A DNA stretch of 61,857 bases, filler included. It is 7 parts of 7 records of this genome, joined end to end, with 100 filler letters (N's around TTAATTAATTAA, not from the genome) between each part and the next. Parts side by side here need not be neighbours in the genome. Positions count along the whole stretch, not along the records: positions 1 to 6,485 come from SRR31156797_27559; 6 more parts are not named here. The stretch is one strand, 5' to 3'. The notes under the pieces were generated by a model, which was not told the DNA's origin, did not search any database, and was given only the letters and a program-made list of their open reading frames with translations. The position numbers were made by a program, and so were the translations under genes. Below, piece by piece: positions 1-54,373 of this stretch. How positions within the stretch are numbered: the stretch's first letter is position 1; every line of letters begins with the position of its first letter.

Positions 1-1
1 T

Positions 2-46
2 TATAGAACACTTTGTACGTTTAGGTTTAAAATTGAGAGGAAGTGA
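2..46 (+). repeat. Orphan peptide-coding junction element, copy 1 (YRTLCTFRFKIERK*), truncated by window start
   Basis: Aligns without gaps to 1309-1353: 7/14 aa identical, same TGA position, 29/45 nt. Confidence 0.6.
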
Positions 47-67
47 AATATCTCACAAATATAAAAA

Positions 68-955
68 TCAAGGATTGATATGATAAGATAATAATTTCAC
101 TTCTTTAGAATGATCACCATATACACCCCCCTCAATCAATCCAACATCCTTTTTTAACACCCAATATGAGGTATAAGCAAAATGAGATTGAGGCTTTTCT
201 CTAATAGCTACCGTGTCCTCGTCAGATTCAAACAGGAAAGGAACTCCCGTATAAAAGATAGAAGCACCAATGGCACTGATTCCCCCTGTTGATGTCCAAA
301 AATAAAAATACTCGTTACTGAATTCATCCCATTTTACTCTTCTAACTAATTTTGCCACATCATGAAATTCACGAGGGTACACATAGTTTGAATCATGACC
401 GTAACCAATAAATGTTCCATTAAAATCACATGATAAATATAGTGTATCATTCATTTCGTCATATTGAATTATTTCCCATATCTCACGGCCATTATATTGA
501 TACTCAGACCCATAAGCCCCTACTTCGTATTCCCATTTATTTCCAATAGCTATGGGGAAATAGTTATTATAATTACTGAAATCTATACTTAAATCTATTG
601 TTATTGAATCTTTGGTGATATTACCATCTGTATCTGACACCTCACATCGAACATTTATTATTAAATGATTATGATAGGGAATCAATATTGCTTGGTTTTG
701 TGATGAAATTAAATATCCGCTGTCATTATACCAATTATATGTAAGTGAATCATTATTACTGTCACTTGCAAAACAAATTATTTTCAACGTGTCCCCATTC
801 TTGTATTCATCAAACAACTCTAATACATTTAAAGAATCTATTACCGGTGCATGGTTTGTTTCAAAAGGTTCAAAGTTACAATTATAAAAAACCACTCCAA
901 GAAAACATATGATTAACAAGGAAAATATCTTTTTCTTTAGGGGAGTTTTTGCCAT
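68..955 (-). CDS. Hypothetical secreted/lipoprotein with Ig/PKD-like N-terminal module and YFPxxxGNxWxY domain
   Basis: 295 aa ORF; hydrophobic N-terminus ending FYNC; NHAPVI...D.NNDSLTYNW...VSD.DG Ig-like pattern; NYFPIAIGNKWEY motif; AT-rich. Confidence 0.7.
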   Translation of the reverse strand: MAKTPLKKKIFSLLIICFLGVVFYNCNFEPFETNHAPVIDSLNVLELFDEYKNGDTLKIICFASDSNNDSLTYNWYNDSGYLISSQNQAILIPYHNHLIINVRCEVSDTDGNITKDSITIDLSIDFSNYNNYFPIAIGNKWEYEVGAYGSEYQYNGREIWEIIQYDEMNDTLYLSCDFNGTFIGYGHDSNYVYPREFHDVAKLVRRVKWDEFSNEYFYFWTSTGGISAIGASIFYTGVPFLFESDEDTVAIREKPQSHFAYTSYWVLKKDVGLIEGGVYGDHSKEVKLLSYHINP

Positions 956-999
956 ATAAGCACCATACTTTAGTTTAATAATTATTTTTCTAACTTTAT

Positions 1000-1028
1000 A
1001 AGATAGAATTTACCAATAATAATGTCAA
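1000..1028 (-). promoter_or_regulatory. Sigma70-type promoter for 68-955
   Basis: TTGACA (1028-1023), 17 nt, TATCTT (1005-1000). Confidence 0.55.
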
Positions 1029-1111
1029 TAACTTAAAGTAGCTGCCTGTTCACCCGAAACGTCAGTAGATTATTTATAACTGTCTATATGGCTAAAAAAT
1101 TAATTCTCGGT

Positions 1112-1155
1112 GAGATCCTGAATAAACATGCCGACGGCATATTTTTCAGGATGAC
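1112..1155. repeat. Palindromic intergenic element GAGATCCTGAA...TTCAGGATGAC with inner ATGCC-GAC-GGCAT hairpin
   Basis: Nested inverted repeats visible in the sequence. Confidence 0.55.
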
Positions 1156-1172
1156 TATGTGTATGTGGTTTG

Positions 1173-1202
1173 GTATACGGAACAGGCATGCCTGTTCCCT
1201 AC
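1173..1202. repeat. GTAG-family REP-like palindrome
   Basis: Perfect palindrome GGAACAGGCATGCCTGTTCC followed by CTAC (GTAG on the minus strand). Confidence 0.65.
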
Positions 1203-1257
1203 ACTCCGCATCTCCCCCTCTCCCCCTCTCAGTGCTCCCCCTCAGCTTTTTGTTCAC

Positions 1258-1286
1258 AAAAAGCAAAAACCGCCAATGGCGGTTTT
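1258..1286 (-). terminator. Rho-independent terminator at cassette junction
   Basis: AAAACCGCC-AAT-GGCGGTTTT stem with T-runs on the minus strand. Confidence 0.7.
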
Positions 1287-1287
1287 A

Positions 1288-1353
1288 ATGCGGGGACAAC
1301 GAGAGCCGCACCGAACTCTGTTGATTATTAGGGTTAAGTTGGATAGAAAGTGA
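1288..1353 (+). repeat. Degenerate copy of tRNA-Asp 3' end (att-like) fused to orphan peptide tail, copy 2 (MRGQREPHRTLLIIRVKLDRK*)
   Basis: 1288-1311 matches 2374-2397 at 16/24 nt without gaps (shared GCGGG and ACGAGAG); 1309-1353 is homologous to 2-46. Confidence 0.6.
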
Positions 1354-1452
1354 TCATTTACGAGGGGTTAGGAGTGAATAAAATTCTTATTTAAGGATTA
1401 ACGTATATTATTAGTTCAAAATGCCTGATTATTCGGGAGAAGGTTATCAAAT

Positions 1453-2184
1453 TCAATTAAATGAAAATCCGCATTCAAAATTTATTGCATTCAAATTTAT
1501 CCAATTATCTTTATAATCTACACTTCCCATTGATTGTATTTTTTTTATATGATTAGTGTATGTAATTGCGCAAGATAATCTGTCAGATATTAGTTTGATC
1601 CCGCCATGGACAATCAAGCCCGAATTAACAACATCAGAAATACCATCTGTATACCCTGTTAGACATTCAATATTATCAATGGTATCATCATAATAAACAA
1701 ATTCACCCCAATCATACATTGTATTATCGAAAAGATAATGGAATAGCGCATAACCCATACCAACAAACGGTGCAATGGAAAGAGATTGGTTTATTTCTAA
1801 TAAATATTCTAGTAGTAAATTTAGCTCAATAATATCATAGTTAAGATAAATATCTGAATCACGATGTACCATATCACCTGGCATCACTAGTAAAATATCC
1901 TTATTTAAAATTTCCATTTTGATATCCGTGTATTTTAATCCATATTGCAGGAAGAAATTTTTTCCTAAATGCTTTTTTCGATAATACCCTAAATTGAAGC
2001 TCATTTTTCCAATTTCATCATTTGCAAAAAGTTGAGATCTATTTAAGCCAACAAAGACGGTATTTTTATAATAAGATTTTTCGGAAAGAGAATCAATACC
2101 ATCATTTGCATATATTTGTGTTAAAAAAACAAATAAAACAATTAACGCAATTTTTACTGTAGTTTTTTTACTTGTTTTATTCAT
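1453..2184 (-). CDS. Putative outer-membrane beta-barrel protein
   Basis: Signal peptide (IYA/ND), alternating aromatic beta-strands, C-terminus FECGFSFN; AT-rich. Confidence 0.7.
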   Translation of the reverse strand: MNKTSKKTTVKIALIVLFVFLTQIYANDGIDSLSEKSYYKNTVFVGLNRSQLFANDEIGKMSFNLGYYRKKHLGKNFFLQYGLKYTDIKMEILNKDILLVMPGDMVHRDSDIYLNYDIIELNLLLEYLLEINQSLSIAPFVGMGYALFHYLFDNTMYDWGEFVYYDDTIDNIECLTGYTDGISDVVNSGLIVHGGIKLISDRLSCAITYTNHIKKIQSMGSVDYKDNWINLNAINFECGFSFN

Positions 2185-2326
2185 TTTTATTCAACCTGTT
2201 TAGATGCATTAGTGCGTCTAAAAATCTTCAAAGTTAATTATTAAAATTTCATAGTAAGTTAAGAGATACATTTTAATTTACCAAGTATGATTGTATGCAA
2301 CTTTAACCCGGTGGCTTTTTCATACC

Positions 2327-2367
2327 AAAATAAAAAACGGTCGTTGAACAAGTGTTCTGTACGACCG
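2327..2367 (-). terminator. Hairpin/terminator downstream of tRNA-Asp
   Basis: CGGTCGT...ACGACCG stem with inner GAACA/TGTTC, then T-run on the minus strand. Confidence 0.6.
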
Positions 2368-2373
2368 CTGTTA

Positions 2374-2450
2374 TGGCGGGACTGACGAGAGTCGAACTCG
2401 CAACTTCCGGCGTGACAGGCCGGTGCTCTAACCAGTTGAACTACAGCCCC
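2374..2450 (-). tRNA. trnD: tRNA-Asp (GUC)
   Basis: GGGGCTGTAGTTCAACTGGTTAGAGCACCGGCCTGTCACGCCGGAAGTTGCGAGTTCGACTCTCGTCAGTCCCGCCA; cloverleaf, GTC anticodon, encoded CCA. Confidence 0.97.
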
Positions 2451-2465
2451 GTGAAAAAGCTGACT

Positions 2466-2494
2466 ATTATACGGCATAAAGCATAATTAGTCAA
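2466..2494 (-). promoter_or_regulatory. Sigma70 promoter of tRNA-Asp
   Basis: TTGACT, 17 nt, TATAAT just upstream of the tRNA. Confidence 0.75.
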
Positions 2495-2556
2495 TAACTT
2501 TTTATCATTTGTGAATTTTTTGTTCAAGACAACCCTTGAATAATTAACAATTGAAC

Positions 2557-2580
2557 CCTCCGTAGCTTTAGCGAAGGAGG
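2557..2580. repeat. Small imperfect palindromic element CCTCCGTAGCTTTAGCGAAGGAGG
   Basis: GC-rich hairpin in an AT-rich intergenic region. Confidence 0.45.
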
Positions 2581-2705
2581 AAACAATCGAAGGAAATATC
2601 GAATAACGATTTACGAGGGATATTGAACTGCTACGCAGTTCGTTTATAAAGAAAAATCGATTTCTACTATATTCGACTACTATGTAGTCTCTTTAATTTT
2701 ACTCC

Positions 2706-2743
2706 ATTCACGACCTTTCACGTTTCACGTCTTACGTCTCACG
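2706..2743. repeat. Degenerate heptamer tandem repeat (TTTCACG/TCTTACG/TCTCACG)
   Basis: attcacg-acc-tttcacg-tttcacg-tcttacg-tctcacg. Confidence 0.6.
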
Positions 2744-2810
2744 TCCTATTTTTTGTTTGCATTTACTTGCACAAATCGTATTTTTATATGATACACACAG
2801 GAGAACGCTA

Positions 2811-4628
2811 ATGAATTACCAATTAGACTACTTAAAAACGATGCCGGAAGTTTTTGCCGATGCGCTGCTTGGCGGCATGGACCGTAAACTTTACAATGTA
2901 AAAAGAAATGAAAAATGGGTCAGCTTTACCTATCGTGACGTTAATGAAAACATCCAACGGATCGGTTTTGGACTTTACGCTCTTGGAGCTAAAGCCAAGG
3001 ATCGTGTGGGTATCCTTTCAGAGAATCGACCGGAATGGAATATGTTCGACCTGGCTTGCGCTCATTTCAACATCACCTCTGTCCCGGTTTATCAAACTTG
3101 TATTCCCAAACAGATCGAATTCATTCTTAACCACGCCAAGGTTAAAATTCTGGTAGTTTCTTCAAAAGAGCAGGCCGAAAAGGTCATCTCAATCAAGAGC
3201 ACCCTTAAAGAACTTAAATACATGGTTATCTTAAATGATCATGATTATGATGACAACTGGATCATCTCCTGGGATGATATGCTGAAAAAAGGCGATGAAG
3301 AAAAAGAGACATCAAAACTCACTATGCTGGAAATCGCAGCCAAGGTGAAACCGGAAGATCTTTTCAGCATCATCTATACCTCGGGTACTTCCGGTGATCC
3401 CAAAGGTGTGATGATCTCACAATTCAATATGGCTTCCAACGTTCAGCAGTCACAAGCTGCCATTGGGTTCCAGAAAAATAAGAAATGGCTGTCATTTTTA
3501 CCACTGGCACACAGTTTTGAACGTGTAACTTCCCTGTTTAGCATGTGGATCGGTGCAAATATCTACTTTGCCGAGAGTATTGCAAAAGTTGCAGGAAACA
3601 TGAAAGAAGTAAAACCTCAGTATATGACCACGGCTCCCCGTCTTCTTGAAAAGGTCTACGCGGGTGTTCAGGAAAAGGTCGCCTTGGGTTCACCTATAAA
3701 GCAAAAAATATTTGCTTCGGCACAACGCACAGCGCATGAGGTTGTTTCGAAGTATTTGTCCAAGAACAAAAAGCCAAAAGCTTTGCTTGCCGCACGCTAT
3801 GCGCTGGCAAAAAAATTGGTATTCAATAAGGTCGCTGATGTTTTCGGTGGCGAATTTATTCAATGTGTCAGCGGCGGTGCTCCCCTTTCCGAAGAAGTGG
3901 GTGAATTCATTACCGCAGCCGGTATTGATATAATCGAGGGTTACGGTTTAACGGAAATGTCTCCGGTCACTCACGTCAATCCACCACATATGGATACTAA
4001 ATGGGGAACGGTCGGCCCGGCGGTTCCTGATGTGCAAACCAAGATCGCTGAAGACGGTGAGATCCTGCTTAAAGGACCAAACCGCATGGAAAAATATTAC
4101 GATAATCCGGAAGAAACCGCTGAAGCCATCGATCAGGATGGTTGGTTCCATACCGGTGATATCGGTTTCGTTGATGAAGATGGTTATCTTAAGATCACCG
4201 ACCGCAAGAAGAACATCATCGTTACGGCCGGCGGCAAGAACATTGCTCCTGCTGCTGTGGAACGTGAGATTTGTTCTTCCAAATTCATTGAACAGGCCGT
4301 CGTGATCGGCGACAGGCGTAAATATCTTGTAGCCGTTCTGGTTCCTGCAGTGGATATCTTTGCAAAATGGGGTAAAATGCAAGATCCTGCGGTTGAACTG
4401 AACAGCTATGACGATGTTGCCAAATTCGATGCCGTGCATAAATTGATCAAAGATGAACTTGAAGCTCACCAACAGGAATTAGCCCGTTACGAACAGATCA
4501 AGTATTTCTTTATAGCACCTCAGCCTTTCGCTATTGATACCGGTGAAATGACGGCCAGCATGAAGATCAAACGTAAACATATTATCGAGAAATACAGCGA
4601 AGAGATCGAAAAACTTTACAACAACTGA
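2811..4628 (+). CDS. Long-chain fatty acid-CoA ligase (AMP-forming), paralog 1
   Basis: YTSGTSGDPKG, EGYGLTE, GWFHTGDIG and ITDRKK motifs; ATG 2811 follows AGGAG. Confidence 0.92.
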   Translation: MNYQLDYLKTMPEVFADALLGGMDRKLYNVKRNEKWVSFTYRDVNENIQRIGFGLYALGAKAKDRVGILSENRPEWNMFDLACAHFNITSVPVYQTCIPKQIEFILNHAKVKILVVSSKEQAEKVISIKSTLKELKYMVILNDHDYDDNWIISWDDMLKKGDEEKETSKLTMLEIAAKVKPEDLFSIIYTSGTSGDPKGVMISQFNMASNVQQSQAAIGFQKNKKWLSFLPLAHSFERVTSLFSMWIGANIYFAESIAKVAGNMKEVKPQYMTTAPRLLEKVYAGVQEKVALGSPIKQKIFASAQRTAHEVVSKYLSKNKKPKALLAARYALAKKLVFNKVADVFGGEFIQCVSGGAPLSEEVGEFITAAGIDIIEGYGLTEMSPVTHVNPPHMDTKWGTVGPAVPDVQTKIAEDGEILLKGPNRMEKYYDNPEETAEAIDQDGWFHTGDIGFVDEDGYLKITDRKKNIIVTAGGKNIAPAAVEREICSSKFIEQAVVIGDRRKYLVAVLVPAVDIFAKWGKMQDPAVELNSYDDVAKFDAVHKLIKDELEAHQQELARYEQIKYFFIAPQPFAIDTGEMTASMKIKRKHIIEKYSEEIEKLYNN

Positions 4629-4652
4629 TAAACCATTTCACAGGAGGTTATT

Positions 4653-6467
4653 ATCAGCTATTCTTTGAATTACATCAAGACGATGCCTGCACTTTATGCA
4701 GATGCATTATCAAAACGCCCGGACGTTAAACTTTACAATTACAAGTCAAAAGGTGAATGGAAAAGCCACACTTATCAGGAAGTTTATAATTTACTGCCTG
4801 ATCTTGGTTTTGGTTTACTAGCGCTGGGAATTAAAGAGCAGGAAAAAGTGGGCATACTGTCCGAGAATCGACCGGAATGGTGTTTCTTTGACTGGACCTG
4901 TGCTCATTTTAACTTTGTTTCGGTTCCTGTCTACCAGACATCCATTCCAAAACAAATAGAGCATATTCTCAATCATTCCGGGGCTAAGGTCGTGATCGCC
5001 AGTGACGAAGAACAACTTAGCAAGTTGCGCTCCATCAAAAGCAAGATCAAAGCCGTAAAATATGTCGTGATGCTGGACAACAAAAAGCGTGATGAGGCGT
5101 GGATCCTTACTTTGAAAGAATTGAAAAAAATGGGTAAGGAAAAAAGGAAAGAATCCTCCGTCACTATGCAAGATATTGCAGCAAAGATCAAGCCGGACAA
5201 TCTTTGGAGTATTATTTATACTTCCGGTTCCACCGGTGATCCCAAAGGTGTGATGATCTCGCAGTTCAATGTGGCAGCAAATGTTCAGCAAACGCAGGCA
5301 CACACACAATTCAAGGCAAATAAACGCTGGCTGTCATTCCTCCCCTTAAGCCATACCTTTGAGCGTGTAACTTCCTTGTTCAGTTTTTGGGTCGGTGCCG
5401 AGATCTACTTTGCGGAAAGCATTGTAAAAGTACCTGACAACCTTAAAGAGGTCAAACCGCATTTTATGACGACCGTACCGCGTCTTTTAGAAAAAATATA
5501 TGCCACTGTGATCGAACAAGTTTTAGCAGGACCTGCCGCAAAACAGGAGATATTCAACTGGGCGCAAAAAGTCGGACATAAAGCGGTTGTTAAATATTTA
5601 AAAGACAACAAGACACCATTGGGTCCGACCGGGATCAAGTATGGTATTGCCAAGAAACTGGTCTTTAACAAGATCGCCGCTGTTTTTGGCGGTGAATTCA
5701 AGCGATGCGTCAGCGGTGGCGCTCCTCTCGCTCCCGAGATCGGTGAATTTTTCCTGATGTCGGGTATCCGTGTTATGGAAGGCTATGGTTTAACGGAAAT
5801 GACGCCTGTTACTCATGCAAATCGTAATGATCATCTTGAGTTCGGTACCGTTGGTAAAGCTCTTCCGGATGTACAGACAAAGATCGCCGATGATGGCGAG
5901 ATCTTGCTGAACGGTCCTAACAAGATGCAGGGTTATTACAAAGCTCCTGCCGAAACGGCTGAAGCGATTGACAAGGATGGCTGGTTCCATACCGGTGATA
6001 TCGGGTTCATTGATGAAGATGGTAATTTGAAGATCACAGATCGAAAGAAAAACATCATTGTCACTGCCGGAGGTAAGAATATTGCGCCTGCAGGTGTTGA
6101 ACGGGAAATATGTTCATCGAAATATATCGAACAAGCTGTTGTCGTTGGTGACCGAAGAAAATATCTGGTCGCGATCGTTGTTCCCTCTTTAGATATTGTA
6201 AACAAATGGGGTAAAAAACTTGACACTCCTATGGAATTTGAGACATATAAAGATATGGCAAAATCTAAAGATGTGGAAAAATTGATAAGAGACGAACTGG
6301 ATGTGCATCAAGGAGAACTGGCTCGCTATGAACAGATCAAGTATTTCTTCATTGCGCCCCAGCCATTTGCTATTGAAACAGGTGAACTGACTGCAAGCAT
6401 GAAGATCAAACGCAATGAGATCATCAATAAATACGATCTGGAAATCGAAGAGCTTTATAATAATTAG
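4653..6467 (+). CDS. Long-chain fatty acid-CoA ligase, paralog 2 (start ATC 4653 or TTG 4665)
   Basis: YTSGSTGDPKG, EGYGLTE, GWFHTGDIG; colinear with paralog 1. Confidence 0.92.
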   Translation: MSYSLNYIKTMPALYADALSKRPDVKLYNYKSKGEWKSHTYQEVYNLLPDLGFGLLALGIKEQEKVGILSENRPEWCFFDWTCAHFNFVSVPVYQTSIPKQIEHILNHSGAKVVIASDEEQLSKLRSIKSKIKAVKYVVMLDNKKRDEAWILTLKELKKMGKEKRKESSVTMQDIAAKIKPDNLWSIIYTSGSTGDPKGVMISQFNVAANVQQTQAHTQFKANKRWLSFLPLSHTFERVTSLFSFWVGAEIYFAESIVKVPDNLKEVKPHFMTTVPRLLEKIYATVIEQVLAGPAAKQEIFNWAQKVGHKAVVKYLKDNKTPLGPTGIKYGIAKKLVFNKIAAVFGGEFKRCVSGGAPLAPEIGEFFLMSGIRVMEGYGLTEMTPVTHANRNDHLEFGTVGKALPDVQTKIADDGEILLNGPNKMQGYYKAPAETAEAIDKDGWFHTGDIGFIDEDGNLKITDRKKNIIVTAGGKNIAPAGVEREICSSKYIEQAVVVGDRRKYLVAIVVPSLDIVNKWGKKLDTPMEFETYKDMAKSKDVEKLIRDELDVHQGELARYEQIKYFFIAPQPFAIETGELTASMKIKRNEIINKYDLEIEELYNN

Positions 6468-6485
6468 AATTCCAATACACAGGAG

Positions 6486-6585
6486 NNNNNNNNNNNNNNN
6501 NNNNNNNNNNNNNNNNNNNNNNNNNNNNNTTAATTAATTAANNNNNNNNNNNNNNNNNNNNNNNNNNNNNNNNNNNNNNNNNNNN
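6486..6585. other. Artificial contig linker
   Basis: 44 N + TTAATTAATTAA + 44 N; stop codons in all frames. Confidence 0.98.
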
Positions 6586-6791: not shown

Positions 6792-9700
6792 TTACTCAAC
6801 TGATCTATCCCCCAGGTTACCGTATCTATGGTAATTATCGCAGATTGACTGCTGCTGAAAATACTGAAGCAACTCCAAACGCCCTTCCATAAGTACAGGT
6901 GCCCTTGAAATATAAAAACCGACTTTGGCAGCAGCAGTAAACACTTCTACCGGCACTCGGTCCTGATCTGCATACCGGATACGATCAATCTCTCCCATTC
7001 GACCTGCCAGCTCTCCATCAGTTTCACGTAGGACCCTGACTTCCTGTAAAAGCTGTTTTCCATAGTGGGTTTCCAAAAACCTGGTCACACTATTTTCTAA
7101 CGTGGATGGTATACTCAGGGTTGTACAGCACCTTGCCACCCTGGAAGCTGCAACACGAGCAAAGGTATCAAACGGTGAGTCTTCAGAGTGAACACGGATT
7201 ACCATGTTGCGAATCGGGCGGTAACGCAGAATATTATCTTGCCCCCGGAGATGAAAATAATCCTGCTCCTGGCCGAAACGCGCCTCCATATTATAAAGAT
7301 AGCTGTTGATGGCACTGATCAGTTTTTCCAGGTCCTCTTTAATATCAGCCATTTTTCCCCACTGAATCAGCTTACGCCATTCCTGCGCCAGCTGCAGCAG
7401 CTGGTAGTCCTGATCCAGACGTTGCTCAGCCGGATGCGCAACCTCTTCAAAATCCATGAACTGGGCAACATAGTCAGGGCTTCCCGCCTTGAGTCCAGGG
7501 CCCAGTGCGGATTTCCCCATCCCGCCAAATGGCTGACGCAAAACAATGGCCCCGGTTGTTCCACGGTTTACGTACAGGTTACCGGCGAATATCTGTTCTT
7601 TCCACACTTCCTGCTCCCGGTGGTCCAGGGTCTCAATACCTGAGGTCAGGCCATACCCGGTCTGGTTGACCAGGGAGATGGCATGTTCCAAATTTTCAGC
7701 CCGCATGACGCCAAGCAGCGGTCCGAAAAACTCTGTCATGTGAGTGTAACTACCCGGCTGAACCCCATACTTAATCCCTGGAGACCAGATAAAAGGATTA
7801 TCATCAACCATCCCCGGCACCAGCGCCCATTCCTCACCCGAATCCAAGGTTGTGAGACCCCGCTTGAGATCTCCACTGGGCGGTTTAACCAAAGTTGCAA
7901 TCTTGCTGCTGAACGTCCATGCAGAGCCAACCTTCCAACTTGCTGCGGCATCAACCAGTTGCTGTCTGAAATGTGGATCATCATAGATGGTCTTCTCCAG
8001 TACAAGCAGGCTGGTTGCACTGCATTTCTGGCCGCAGTTACTGAAAGCTGAATGAATAACATTTTTAATGGCCTGGTCGCGATCAGCCATGTCGGTAACA
8101 ATGGTAGCATTTTTACCGCCGGTTTCCGCTGCAAGGTAGACTCCCGGAGTCTGCTCCAAAATCTGGAGCCCAGTATCTGTCCCACCAGTTAAAATAATGA
8201 AATCCACATCCTCACTTGCCGTTAACAGCGGCCCGACCTTTGCACCCGAACAGGGTACAAACTGGAGGGTATTTTTAGAAATACCTGCACGCCAGAAACA
8301 CTGGCAAAGTTTCCATGCCGTCATTACCGCGTCCGATGCAGGTTTAAACACAACCGTGTTGCCTGCTGCCAGCGCAGTAACCACTCCTCCGCATGGGATG
8401 GCAATGGGAAAGTTCCATGGAGAAATAACCAACCCGACGCCCTGTCCTTTGGTTTCTATGTTCTCAATATCGTCAAGTTGACTTGCGGTCAGAGGATAAT
8501 ACTCGGCAAAATCAATAGCCTCGGACACCTCCACATCTCCTTCCATGAAGATCTTACCAGTGTCTCCGGCTGCCGTACCCAACAATTCTCCTCGGGCTGC
8601 CCGCAGTTCAAAGGAAACCTTGGAAAGTGCCTCATGCCGCTCCTGAGCACTCAATTTTCGCCAACCGTCGGGATCCTGCTTTGCCGTGGCAATGGCCTTG
8701 AGCGCATCCTCTTCATTTGCCATGGCAAATTTGGCCACACATACTTTTTCCTGAGGCTGGTTGGGGTCGATCACTTCCTTGGTAACGCGCCCCTCATATA
8801 ACTCCTCTCCTCCAATGACCACTGGAATCCGGATGGGCGTGTTACCTGCTGATTTCTTATATTCATCTCGAATACCCTCAGCCCATTTTCGATTAGCCGC
8901 CAAAGCCCAATCCGTATCTGCCTCGTTGACAAATCGGTTGGAATAATACGTGGAAGCGGACGCCGGAAAGGTTTCCATTGACCGATCCTGGATTCGGTTG
9001 GGCCCGTCCTGGGCGAGTTCCTGATGGGCACAAGAGCTAAGAAAACTCCCTTTAAGATAGGCCCATTCATTGGAACCTACTGAAAGATCAGGTGAATAAC
9101 GCAGAAAATTTTCAGGCGCGGTATTTTCATCCAGCCGACGAATGAGATAGGCAATGGCATTAATGAACTCATCTTTCGAGGCCACAGGAGCATAAAGCAG
9201 AACATCACCGTCTCCCTCACTGAGTGCCCGACGTACATGATCAGCCATGCCCTCAAGCATTTCAAAATAAAAATAGGGGTTCAGATTATTTTCCCTGGCC
9301 AGTACCGCTGCATAGGCAAGTTCAAAAAGATTGTGGGAAGCTACCCCAAGATTAACGGCCTTAATATTTTCCTCTTCCATCCCATAGGTGACCATTCGCT
9401 TATAATTAGCATCCACCTCAAGCTTGTTATCGTATGGGGCAAGGGGCCAATTAAAGAGAGCCGACTCCAGTTTCTCCATTTCCATATTAGCGCCTTTTAC
9501 GATTCTCAACTTGACCGGCGCACCCCCGTTTGCAACTCTCTCTTTTGCCCAGTTGGTTAATTTTCGCTGCATCCCGAAACTGTCGGGCAGGTAGGCCTGG
9601 AGCACGATCCCACCGGAATAATCTTTAAACTCCTCTTCGTTCAAAGTCTCAGTAAAGGCGGCATAAGTAATTTCCAGATCCCTATACTCCTCCATATCCA

Positions 9701-20673: not shown

Positions 20674-20773
20674 NNNNNNNNNNNNNNNNNNNNNNNNNNN
20701 NNNNNNNNNNNNNNNNNTTAATTAATTAANNNNNNNNNNNNNNNNNNNNNNNNNNNNNNNNNNNNNNNNNNNN
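20674..20773. other. Artificial contig linker
   Basis: 44 N + TTAATTAATTAA + 44 N. Confidence 0.98.
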
Positions 20774-30672: not shown

Positions 30673-30772
30673 NNNNNNNNNNNNNNNNNNNNNNNNNNNN
30701 NNNNNNNNNNNNNNNNTTAATTAATTAANNNNNNNNNNNNNNNNNNNNNNNNNNNNNNNNNNNNNNNNNNNN
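30673..30772. other. Artificial contig linker
   Basis: 44 N + TTAATTAATTAA + 44 N. Confidence 0.98.
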
Positions 30773-37583: not shown

Positions 37584-37683
37584 NNNNNNNNNNNNNNNNN
37601 NNNNNNNNNNNNNNNNNNNNNNNNNNNTTAATTAATTAANNNNNNNNNNNNNNNNNNNNNNNNNNNNNNNNNNNNNNNNNNNN
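37584..37683. other. Artificial contig linker
   Basis: 44 N + TTAATTAATTAA + 44 N. Confidence 0.98.
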
Positions 37684-47503: not shown

Positions 47504-47603
47504 NNNNNNNNNNNNNNNNNNNNNNNNNNNNNNNNNNNNNNNNNNNNTTAATTAATTAANNNNNNNNNNNNNNNNNNNNNNNNNNNNNNNNNNNNNNNNN
47601 NNN
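47504..47603. other. Artificial contig linker
   Basis: 44 N + TTAATTAATTAA + 44 N. Confidence 0.98.
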
Positions 47604-54273: not shown

Positions 54274-54373
54274 NNNNNNNNNNNNNNNNNNNNNNNNNNN
54301 NNNNNNNNNNNNNNNNNTTAATTAATTAANNNNNNNNNNNNNNNNNNNNNNNNNNNNNNNNNNNNNNNNNNNN
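54274..54373. other. Artificial contig linker
   Basis: 44 N + TTAATTAATTAA + 44 N. Confidence 0.98.

Follow-up and report, generated by a model that had tools for sequence, protein, structure and literature searches.

Two junctions on the first contig of a marine bacterial draft genome read as the same kind of short peptide tail, which raises the question of what these tails are and how two copies came to lie so close together. The window analysed here, 61,857 nt in all, consists of seven draft-genome contigs joined by artificial linkers (44 N, TTAATTAATTAA, 44 N), and the first contig occupies positions 1-6485. At 2..46 (copy 1) and 1309..1353 (copy 2), both on the plus strand, 14 codons are followed by a TGA stop. 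We conclude that the copies are probably a junction repeat that mobile elements leave behind when a large serine recombinase (LSR) inserts them at the 3′ end of a tRNA-Asp gene, with the recombinase gene spanning its own element-side attachment site (attP). Each tail is most likely the cut-off last ~20 codons of that serine recombinase gene.

The resemblance was first described in a sequence-only reading of this DNA, and its particulars hold. Positions 2-46 read YRTLCTFRFKIERK and 1309-1353 read HRTLLIIRVKLDRK, each followed by a stop, with 7 of 14 residues and 29 of 45 bases identical (10, 13 and 6 of the 15 at codon positions 1, 2 and 3). Five of the seven common residues use different codons (AGA/CGA, ACA/ACT, CTT/CTG, AAA/AAG and AGG/AGA), and both tails lie tail-to-tail with minus-strand genes (68-955 and 1453-2184). 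The flanking genes were ruled out as paralogs (BLASTP E 0.34). Among the 2356 stop-ended 14-codon tails in the six frames of the window, copies 1 and 2 are mutual best partners with a score of 37, the next scores being 20 and 21. When copy 1 was scanned without gaps along both strands of the window, only position 1309 reached at least 26 of 45 identities (runner-up 25), and in the shuffle control that the earlier reading had proposed, copy 2 was shuffled 200,000 times and reached 29/45 once. An all-against-all comparison of the window's stop-ended tails should give about 7 pairs with this score by chance (2.5e-6 × 2.77 million pairs), so the in-window statistic is not decisive by itself. The similarity is settled as real by a profile made from copies in other genomes only, which matches both 1290-1354 (E 7.8e-14) and 2-47 (E 4.5e-10). 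Given these matches, and 38 distinct relatives of the tails, we regard chance similarity in AT-rich intergenic DNA as negligible, the ~7 expected pairs being the one point in its favor.

The tails are part of a repeat family associated with tRNA-Asp. The fadD-like neighbors of the repeat yielded relatives within Candidatus Neomarinimicrobiota (80-82% identical) that carry the same repeat. The repeat unit (“Part B”) is ~64 nt long and comprises a core similar to the reverse complement of the tRNA-Asp 3′ end, followed by the 14 codons and usually a stop. The cores have diverged from tRNA-Asp. A terminator-like hairpin precedes each Part B, and its sequence varies between copies with compensatory changes. 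Part B was detected by DNA search in 14 of 41 relatives of G001 and in 11 metagenome stretches, while the tail protein profile detected it in 12 of 35 genomes of one Candidatus Neomarinimicrobiota class and in 11 of 401 genomes of the phylum, all from one narrow group. The units form arrays of 2-5 copies that point in one direction, are spaced 1-4 kb apart and start at the 3′ end of tRNA-Asp. Six array loci are located beside fadD-like genes (the window, L002, L056, L057, L059 and L060), and in these the tandem units are bounded by copies of the 3′ end of the target. The commonest hairpin type is confined to the arrays, where it was found in eight places in four of five genomes.

Some junctions carry exact copies of the tRNA-Asp 3′ end (24-25 nt; G003:C214 and G002:C93). 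One of these, L102 (G003:C214, 10097-11299), has a 24-nt copy followed by different DNA with a 299-aa gene, the start of which we take to be ORF6N/antirepressor-like. Here a different element seems to have inserted at this site more recently. The G003 junction peptide occurred in no long frame in the 401 genomes. One contig in the public run joins window position 1250 to 2376 and omits 1125 nt, and is possibly a form without the insert, possibly from a relative.

The link to a recombinase comes from two junctions at which the tail frame is continuous with recombinase sequence. In L092 (G005:C148), the frame at 1225-1566 runs from a recombinase C-terminus through a translated hairpin to MRGQRRSSRTLFTYRFKLDKK and a stop, and the upstream frames encode a CxxC...C zinc ribbon and a coiled-coil stretch. 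With Pfam, the L092 fragments alone gave a zinc-ribbon match under the cut-off (E 0.049). A search of 5.8 billion proteins returned P0002 (546 aa), with which the degraded recombinase shares 82% identity over 94 aa. P0002 has Resolvase, Recombinase and zinc-ribbon matches, and is thus an LSR. Its C-terminus is KAVANKVFGATAIMRD (...AIMRD), as would be predicted for a frame that passes through the hairpin into the antisense strand of tRNA-Asp. In L060 (G009:C2), the junction frame matches P0002 over its last 22 residues (524-545; E 2e-4) before continuing into its own tail. This frame also matches the C-terminus of the G018 protein (E 0.04), an intact homolog of 550 aa (57% identical) with its stop inside tRNA-Asp. 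G166 encodes a homolog of 566 aa that overlaps tRNA-Asp by ~64 nt. Both genes have Resolvase and Recombinase matches and lie directly beside tRNA-Asp, and ending inside it is the state expected after integration. A recombinase frame that overlaps the attachment site or its target was therefore found in G018, G166, L092 and L060. The C-termini of more distant family members resemble that of the G166 protein; we read these as tRNA antisense, as checked in G166 alone.

The frame continuity in L092 and L060, together with the G018 and G166 genes, supports the proposal of the sequence-only reading that the tails are detached C-terminal ends of a recombinase split at attP. That reading left open whether the enzyme was of the serine or the tyrosine type. 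The serine type is the one that the evidence supports, and tyrosine integrases were rejected: the 17 family matches over the cut-off in five genomes all lie elsewhere and are Xer-like, and the 12 tyrosine recombinases with ends read are ~280-320 aa long and end unlike the tail. Its suggestion of two independent integration events is plausible, with the two tails belonging to different subtypes.

The geometry of the junctions also resembles that of serine integrase sites. Inverted GTTC...GAAC motifs are 40-41 nt apart in 10 of the 37 hairpin + Part B junctions, which include four different hairpin sequences, and the GTTC sits in the 3′ arm of the hairpin, before the GAAC of Part B. In 9 of the 13 hairpin + tRNA-Asp junctions the motifs are 35-36 nt apart; in the window this pair consists of GTTC at 2354-2357 and the tRNA GAAC at 2394-2397, 36 nt apart. 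The half-site motif was assigned by symmetry alone, and by hand count the center of symmetry of GTTC-N40/41-GAAC is the GCGGG common to all junction types. In serine integrase systems, as described in the accessible part of the source, the zinc-ribbon-domain motif of the host site (attB) lies 5 bp nearer the center than that of attP (PMC3783163). By this rule and the spacings, hairpin + Part B junctions resemble attP and hairpin + tRNA junctions resemble attR; a hairpin + Part B junction that has the native tRNA flank as its left arm resembles attL instead. The likeness thus covers both the size of the inverted repeat (~50 bp, as for attP, with inverted half-sites) and the host-side outer motif, which lies ~5 bp further inward. 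The difference from the integrases covered in that source is that the sites reported here are known from sequence alone, and many of the junctions are without the left-arm motif.

If the tails once ended a protein, their substitutions should look like those of a coding region, and to some extent they do. Across the 38 distinct tails, parsimony changes at codon positions 1/2/3 number 63/42/78. The ratio of synonymous to non-synonymous changes is 48:103 in the frame of the earlier reading, vs. 20:115 and 17:120 in the other forward frames. The synonymous fraction of 0.318 compares with a column-shuffle mean of 0.207 ± 0.05, and 81 of 5000 shuffles were at least as high (p ~0.016); one antisense frame gives 0.277. 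The lysine codon changed 10 times at position 3 vs. once and twice at positions 1 and 2, and NTN codons retain the middle T. Conservation of Part B runs ~30 nt past the 52-bp attP-sized site and stops at the stop codon. ATG is present at a fixed column in 8 of the 24 copies that have this column. By itself the codon evidence is suggestive. The earlier claim of selection at the protein level is borne out only in part. The codon-like pattern exists but is modest. For three of the seven identities (R, T and L), the codons lie in a GAAC-containing motif that matches the tRNA T-loop and falls within the presumed DNA half-site, so these three cannot be attributed to protein-level selection.

Taken together, the observations are consistent with the following course of events. 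On the free element, the recombinase gene would cross the hairpin, attP and ~20 more codons, ending in ...MRGQRRS-x-RTL-x-TFRFKL-xxx-stop, and the tail would belong to the active protein. Recombination with the tRNA 3′ end would cut the gene at the crossover, which we infer to lie in the shared GCGGG. The integrated recombinase beside the tRNA would then end after one or a few codons taken from the tRNA antisense strand, and the hairpin of the element would take over as the tRNA terminator. The final ~20 codons would land at the far junction, behind the former terminator of the tRNA, and copy 2, with its native-flank hairpin, would be such a far junction. If such events recurred, and the recombinase genes were lost or cassettes were mobilized in trans, the outcome would be an array of cargo separated by hairpin, core and tail, and the cassettes without a recombinase may have arisen in this way.

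The swap of tails could in addition be a built-in switch, although we consider this doubtful. Full-length recombinase would be made only from the circle or at a junction where a neighbor supplies a tail, and the integrated form, ~20 residues shorter, would have changed activity. Conserved tails would complete truncated or incoming genes, and recombinase-less single-gene cassettes, many with type IX secretion cargo, would be moved in trans. The tyrosine integrase of Myxococcus phage Mx8 reportedly undergoes a similar C-terminal swap.

Several results weigh against an origin of the tails in an LSR gene. The window contains no recombinase gene or remnant detectable by tblastn with P0002, and among all fetched loci the same search found a recombinase remnant only in L092. 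Among 7398 candidates of 80-2000 aa from the 5.8 billion proteins, the tail C-terminal region was found in one fragment of 124 aa, so an intact recombinase with the tail has not been seen. Likewise, neither any of 29 distinct copies nor any of the 34 tail matches in the 35 class genomes lies in an open frame longer than 124 aa. A profile of the 45-aa frames, mostly those of the Part A hairpin type described below, gave no alignment to P0002 (hhalign E 0.3). Viral contigs had no match to the repeat pattern or to P0002, and no free or viral form was found. Of the 37 hairpin + Part B junctions, 27 lack the symmetric GTTC. The codon test gives a modest result (81/5000) with an antisense frame near it, 17 of the 38 tails are without the stop at codon 15 that the other 21 have, and 6 of the 38 have an earlier in-frame stop, including the ortholog of copy 2 that is 86% identical to it. 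Finally, to our knowledge serine integrases do not recombine attP with attR, which leaves second insertions beside an occupied tRNA unexplained.

Part of this evidence is what would be expected if the repeat were conserved as DNA only, as an element-side attachment arm or a 3′ untranslated region/terminator module copied with the cargo, and the reading frame were incidental. The R-T-L codons coincide with the GAAC motif common to the tRNA T-loop, the start codon is not conserved (8/24), six tails contain in-frame stops and the antisense frame comes near the sense frame (0.277 and 0.318). Moreover, many copies abut the stops of type IX cargo genes, and ~290 nt covering the C-terminal domain and the repeat are 70-86% identical between different genes. 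We nevertheless consider this unlikely. Conservation that extends beyond the attP-sized site and ends at the stop codon, the concentration of lysine codon changes at position 3 and the retained middle T of NTN codons do not fit a purely DNA-level constraint, nor does the continuity of the frame with a recombinase at two junctions, and no consensus RNA structure was found on either strand.

A codon-like frame would also be seen if every copy specified a separate small basic protein of 16-25 aa, translated in place. The sequence-only reading found no Shine-Dalgarno-supported start for copy 2; that account needs correction, since an in-frame ATG at 1288-1290 gives MRGQREPHRTLLIIRVKLDRK and a stop. 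This ATG, 8 codons before the R codon, recurs in seven other copies, and copies with the tail of copy 1 have a different ATG 3 codons before the R codon. The wider group makes little use of Shine-Dalgarno sites, so their absence says little, and the codon-like substitution pattern would suit a small protein as well. Several copies, however, are without any start (TAG, AAG or a stop 2 codons upstream), the 64-aa frame has no Pfam family, the copies are confined to tRNA-Asp arrays, and the frame is continuous with a recombinase gene where such a gene is present. We therefore judge translation in place to be very unlikely and retain the detached LSR tail as the explanation.

Other candidates were considered and rejected. 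For a structured RNA, RNAalifold on 25 copies predicted no structure on either strand, and in a search of the window with Rfam only two tRNAs reached the threshold, with nothing at 1-60 or 1200-1400 even at E ≤10. Integron attC sites were rejected as Part B has no consensus structure on either strand, and attC cores were dropped by eye, as were a Xer/dif-like site and an insertion-sequence end. A genome-wide repetitive extragenic palindromic element was dropped given that the hairpin is found only in the arrays, a tmRNA-like tag given that it would be on the wrong strand, and a read-through extension of the cargo genes given that the frames are antisense.

In the window, copy 1 (2..46, plus strand; profile match to model positions 21-66) would comprise the outer element-side half-site (P′), the final 14 codons and TGA. 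It is truncated at the contig end, where the core expected before it is lost. The Logan contig from the single public run with this DNA likewise begins at window base 1, as expected where a repeat breaks an assembly. Tails near-identical to copy 1 occur in G009, G011, G019 and G022. Cargo gene 1 (68..955, minus strand, from the open reading frame list) encodes 295 aa with a lipoprotein-like N-terminus, and its stop is 21 nt from the TGA of copy 1. It has only weak Ig-domain matches in Pfam, under the cut-off, and no relatives in the genome or metagenome contigs searched with it as query.

Ahead of copy 2 lies Part A (1211..1287; delimited by alignment with L001 of G002 and L020 of G005), a C-rich stretch with a hairpin at 1245-1264 and a terminator hairpin at 1270-1282 followed by a T run. 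The hairpins show compensatory changes between copies. The same block is directly 3′ of tRNA-Asp in G002, G003 and G005, which makes the window block a displaced tRNA-side flank (B arm). A perfect 20-nt palindrome (1177-1196) immediately precedes the C-rich stretch; 26 nt that include it are 100% identical at L005:466-491, between tRNA-Asp and a fadD-like gene of another genome. The core (1288..1308, plus strand, from the junction/tRNA-Asp alignment) resembles the tRNA-Asp 3′ end in reverse complement, contains the presumed crossover (shared GCGGG) and the presumed inner P′ half-site, and translates in frame as MRGQREP. Copy 2 (1309..1353, plus strand, by profile match) carries the GAAC motif (1313-1316) of the presumed outer P′ half-site, the final codons and TGA, and its 86% identical ortholog is in G003:C214.

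Cargo gene 2 (1453..2184, minus strand, from the same list) encodes 243 aa with a signal peptide and no Pfam family; in metagenome contigs L063 and L071 its counterpart (blastn, 71%) has a Part B copy on either side. The hairpin directly 3′ of tRNA-Asp (2338..2367, by junction comparison) is the present tRNA terminator and presumably the P arm of the last element. Hairpins of this type are also found ahead of a Part B copy in G019 (L043) and of a partial tRNA-Asp copy in G003:C214, and there is a weak reverse-strand profile match at 2348-2372 (E 9e-4). A 32-aa frame (2287-2385, plus strand) that ends in ...KKRSLNKCSVRPLLWRD and a stop crosses this hairpin into the tRNA, and the DNA from ~20 nt before the hairpin aligns, in a shifted frame, to the recombinase 3′ ends of L092 and L120. 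This region may be all that is left of a recombinase gene since deleted. The integration target, tRNA-Asp (GTC), is at 2374..2450 on the minus strand (ARAGORN and Rfam, 65.5 bits), and its 3′ end would form the B′ half-site. Beyond it, two tandem paralogous AMP-binding (long-chain acyl-CoA ligase-like) genes (2757-6467) form a conserved anchor beside tRNA-Asp, with up to four such genes in a row in relatives (L057). The six linkers (6486-6585, 20674-20773, 30673-30772, 37584-37683, 47504-47603 and 54274-54373) separate distinct contigs, so adjacency across them is meaningless.

The genes between units vary among genomes, and many are type IX secretion cargo with the stop codon abutting the unit. 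Homologous cassettes occupy different array positions in different genomes, as does the 243-aa gene located between two units of L063, and in the window the unit at 1288-2373 contains a single cargo gene but no recombinase. Over their last ~240 nt and the adjoining repeat, differing type IX secretion cargo genes share 70-86% DNA identity (L002 1761-2049, L058 9441-9729 and others). This identity among otherwise differing genes and genomes suggests that the cargo C-terminal domain and the junction unit may be copied or converted together. At 402-845 of L058 (G005:C38), 5 kb from the array, is a 148-aa fragment with matches to the phage-integrase SAM-like N-terminal domain, and a gene with a GIY-YIG nuclease domain is located at the outer end of the L060 array (9230-9661).

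Among the systems in the accessible parts of the literature cited here, the closest known case is that of the Dehalococcoides ssrA islands with the recombinase DsiB (PMC3146451). Both those islands and the window arrays are tandem, lie downstream of a small RNA gene and are flanked by direct repeats of its 3′ end. DsiB is encoded by a gene for a serine recombinase of ~540 aa beside the target, with its 3′ end always overlapping the attachment site (attL), and its stop codon is unclear as it depends on sequence beyond that site (PMC3146451). The gene may be complete only on the circle or beside an island that supplies the 3′ fragment, and there are also islands without an integration module, which the authors read as cis-mobilizable (PMC3146451). 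Recombinases with Resolvase and Recombinase matches, encoded directly beside tRNA-Asp, were seen in the relatives G018 and G166, and a degraded copy in G005:C148; tblastn with P0002 found nothing in the window. The two systems differ in target (tRNA-Asp here, tmRNA in Dehalococcoides) and in host phylum. Here, the recombinase frame additionally crosses a hairpin, which goes on to serve as the tRNA terminator, and nearly all units are single cargo genes without a recombinase. The authors deemed a function of the overlapping part of DsiB unlikely and found its sequence divergent, whereas the detached 3′ fragments here are conserved and codon-like (PMC3146451).

Two other systems share parts of this arrangement, again according to the accessible parts of their sources. 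In the “suicidal” SSV-type integrases, which were called exclusive to archaea, the attachment site is inside the gene and tRNA integration splits the gene (PMC8371274). These are tyrosine recombinases split near the N-terminus, with the catalytic part separated (PMC8371274), whereas here a bacterial serine recombinase would lose only ~20 C-terminal codons. An SSV-type split tyrosine integrase was rejected for the window because the linked enzyme is a serine recombinase. The tycheposons of Prochlorococcus resemble the arrays in having partial tRNA copies between elements, newcomers that push older elements outward and scattered remnants (bioRxiv 10.1101/2020.12.28.424599). They differ in that their genes include a tyrosine recombinase (“YR”), and the accessible part of that source describes no conserved coding junction tails (10.1101/2020.12.28.424599). 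A literature search, with supplements outside its range, found no description of the present system in Marinimicrobia.

The explanation favored here accounts for the hypervariable region of cassettes that this uncultured and widespread marine lineage carries. A further implication is that short “orphan” coding tails at junctions can identify the enzyme that built an island after its gene has been lost, and the predicted attP/attB pair and the enzyme are open to direct testing. The tails bear on a question raised by the Dehalococcoides islands in the accessible part of that report, namely whether the part of the recombinase gene beyond the attachment site is functional (PMC3146451), and their conservation suggests that it is. 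Serine integrases would thereby gain a control of activity based on gene structure besides directionality factors. If the tail swap is indeed a switch, the tRNA-Asp arrays would amount to a cassette platform like that of integrons, but operated by a serine recombinase at a tRNA gene.

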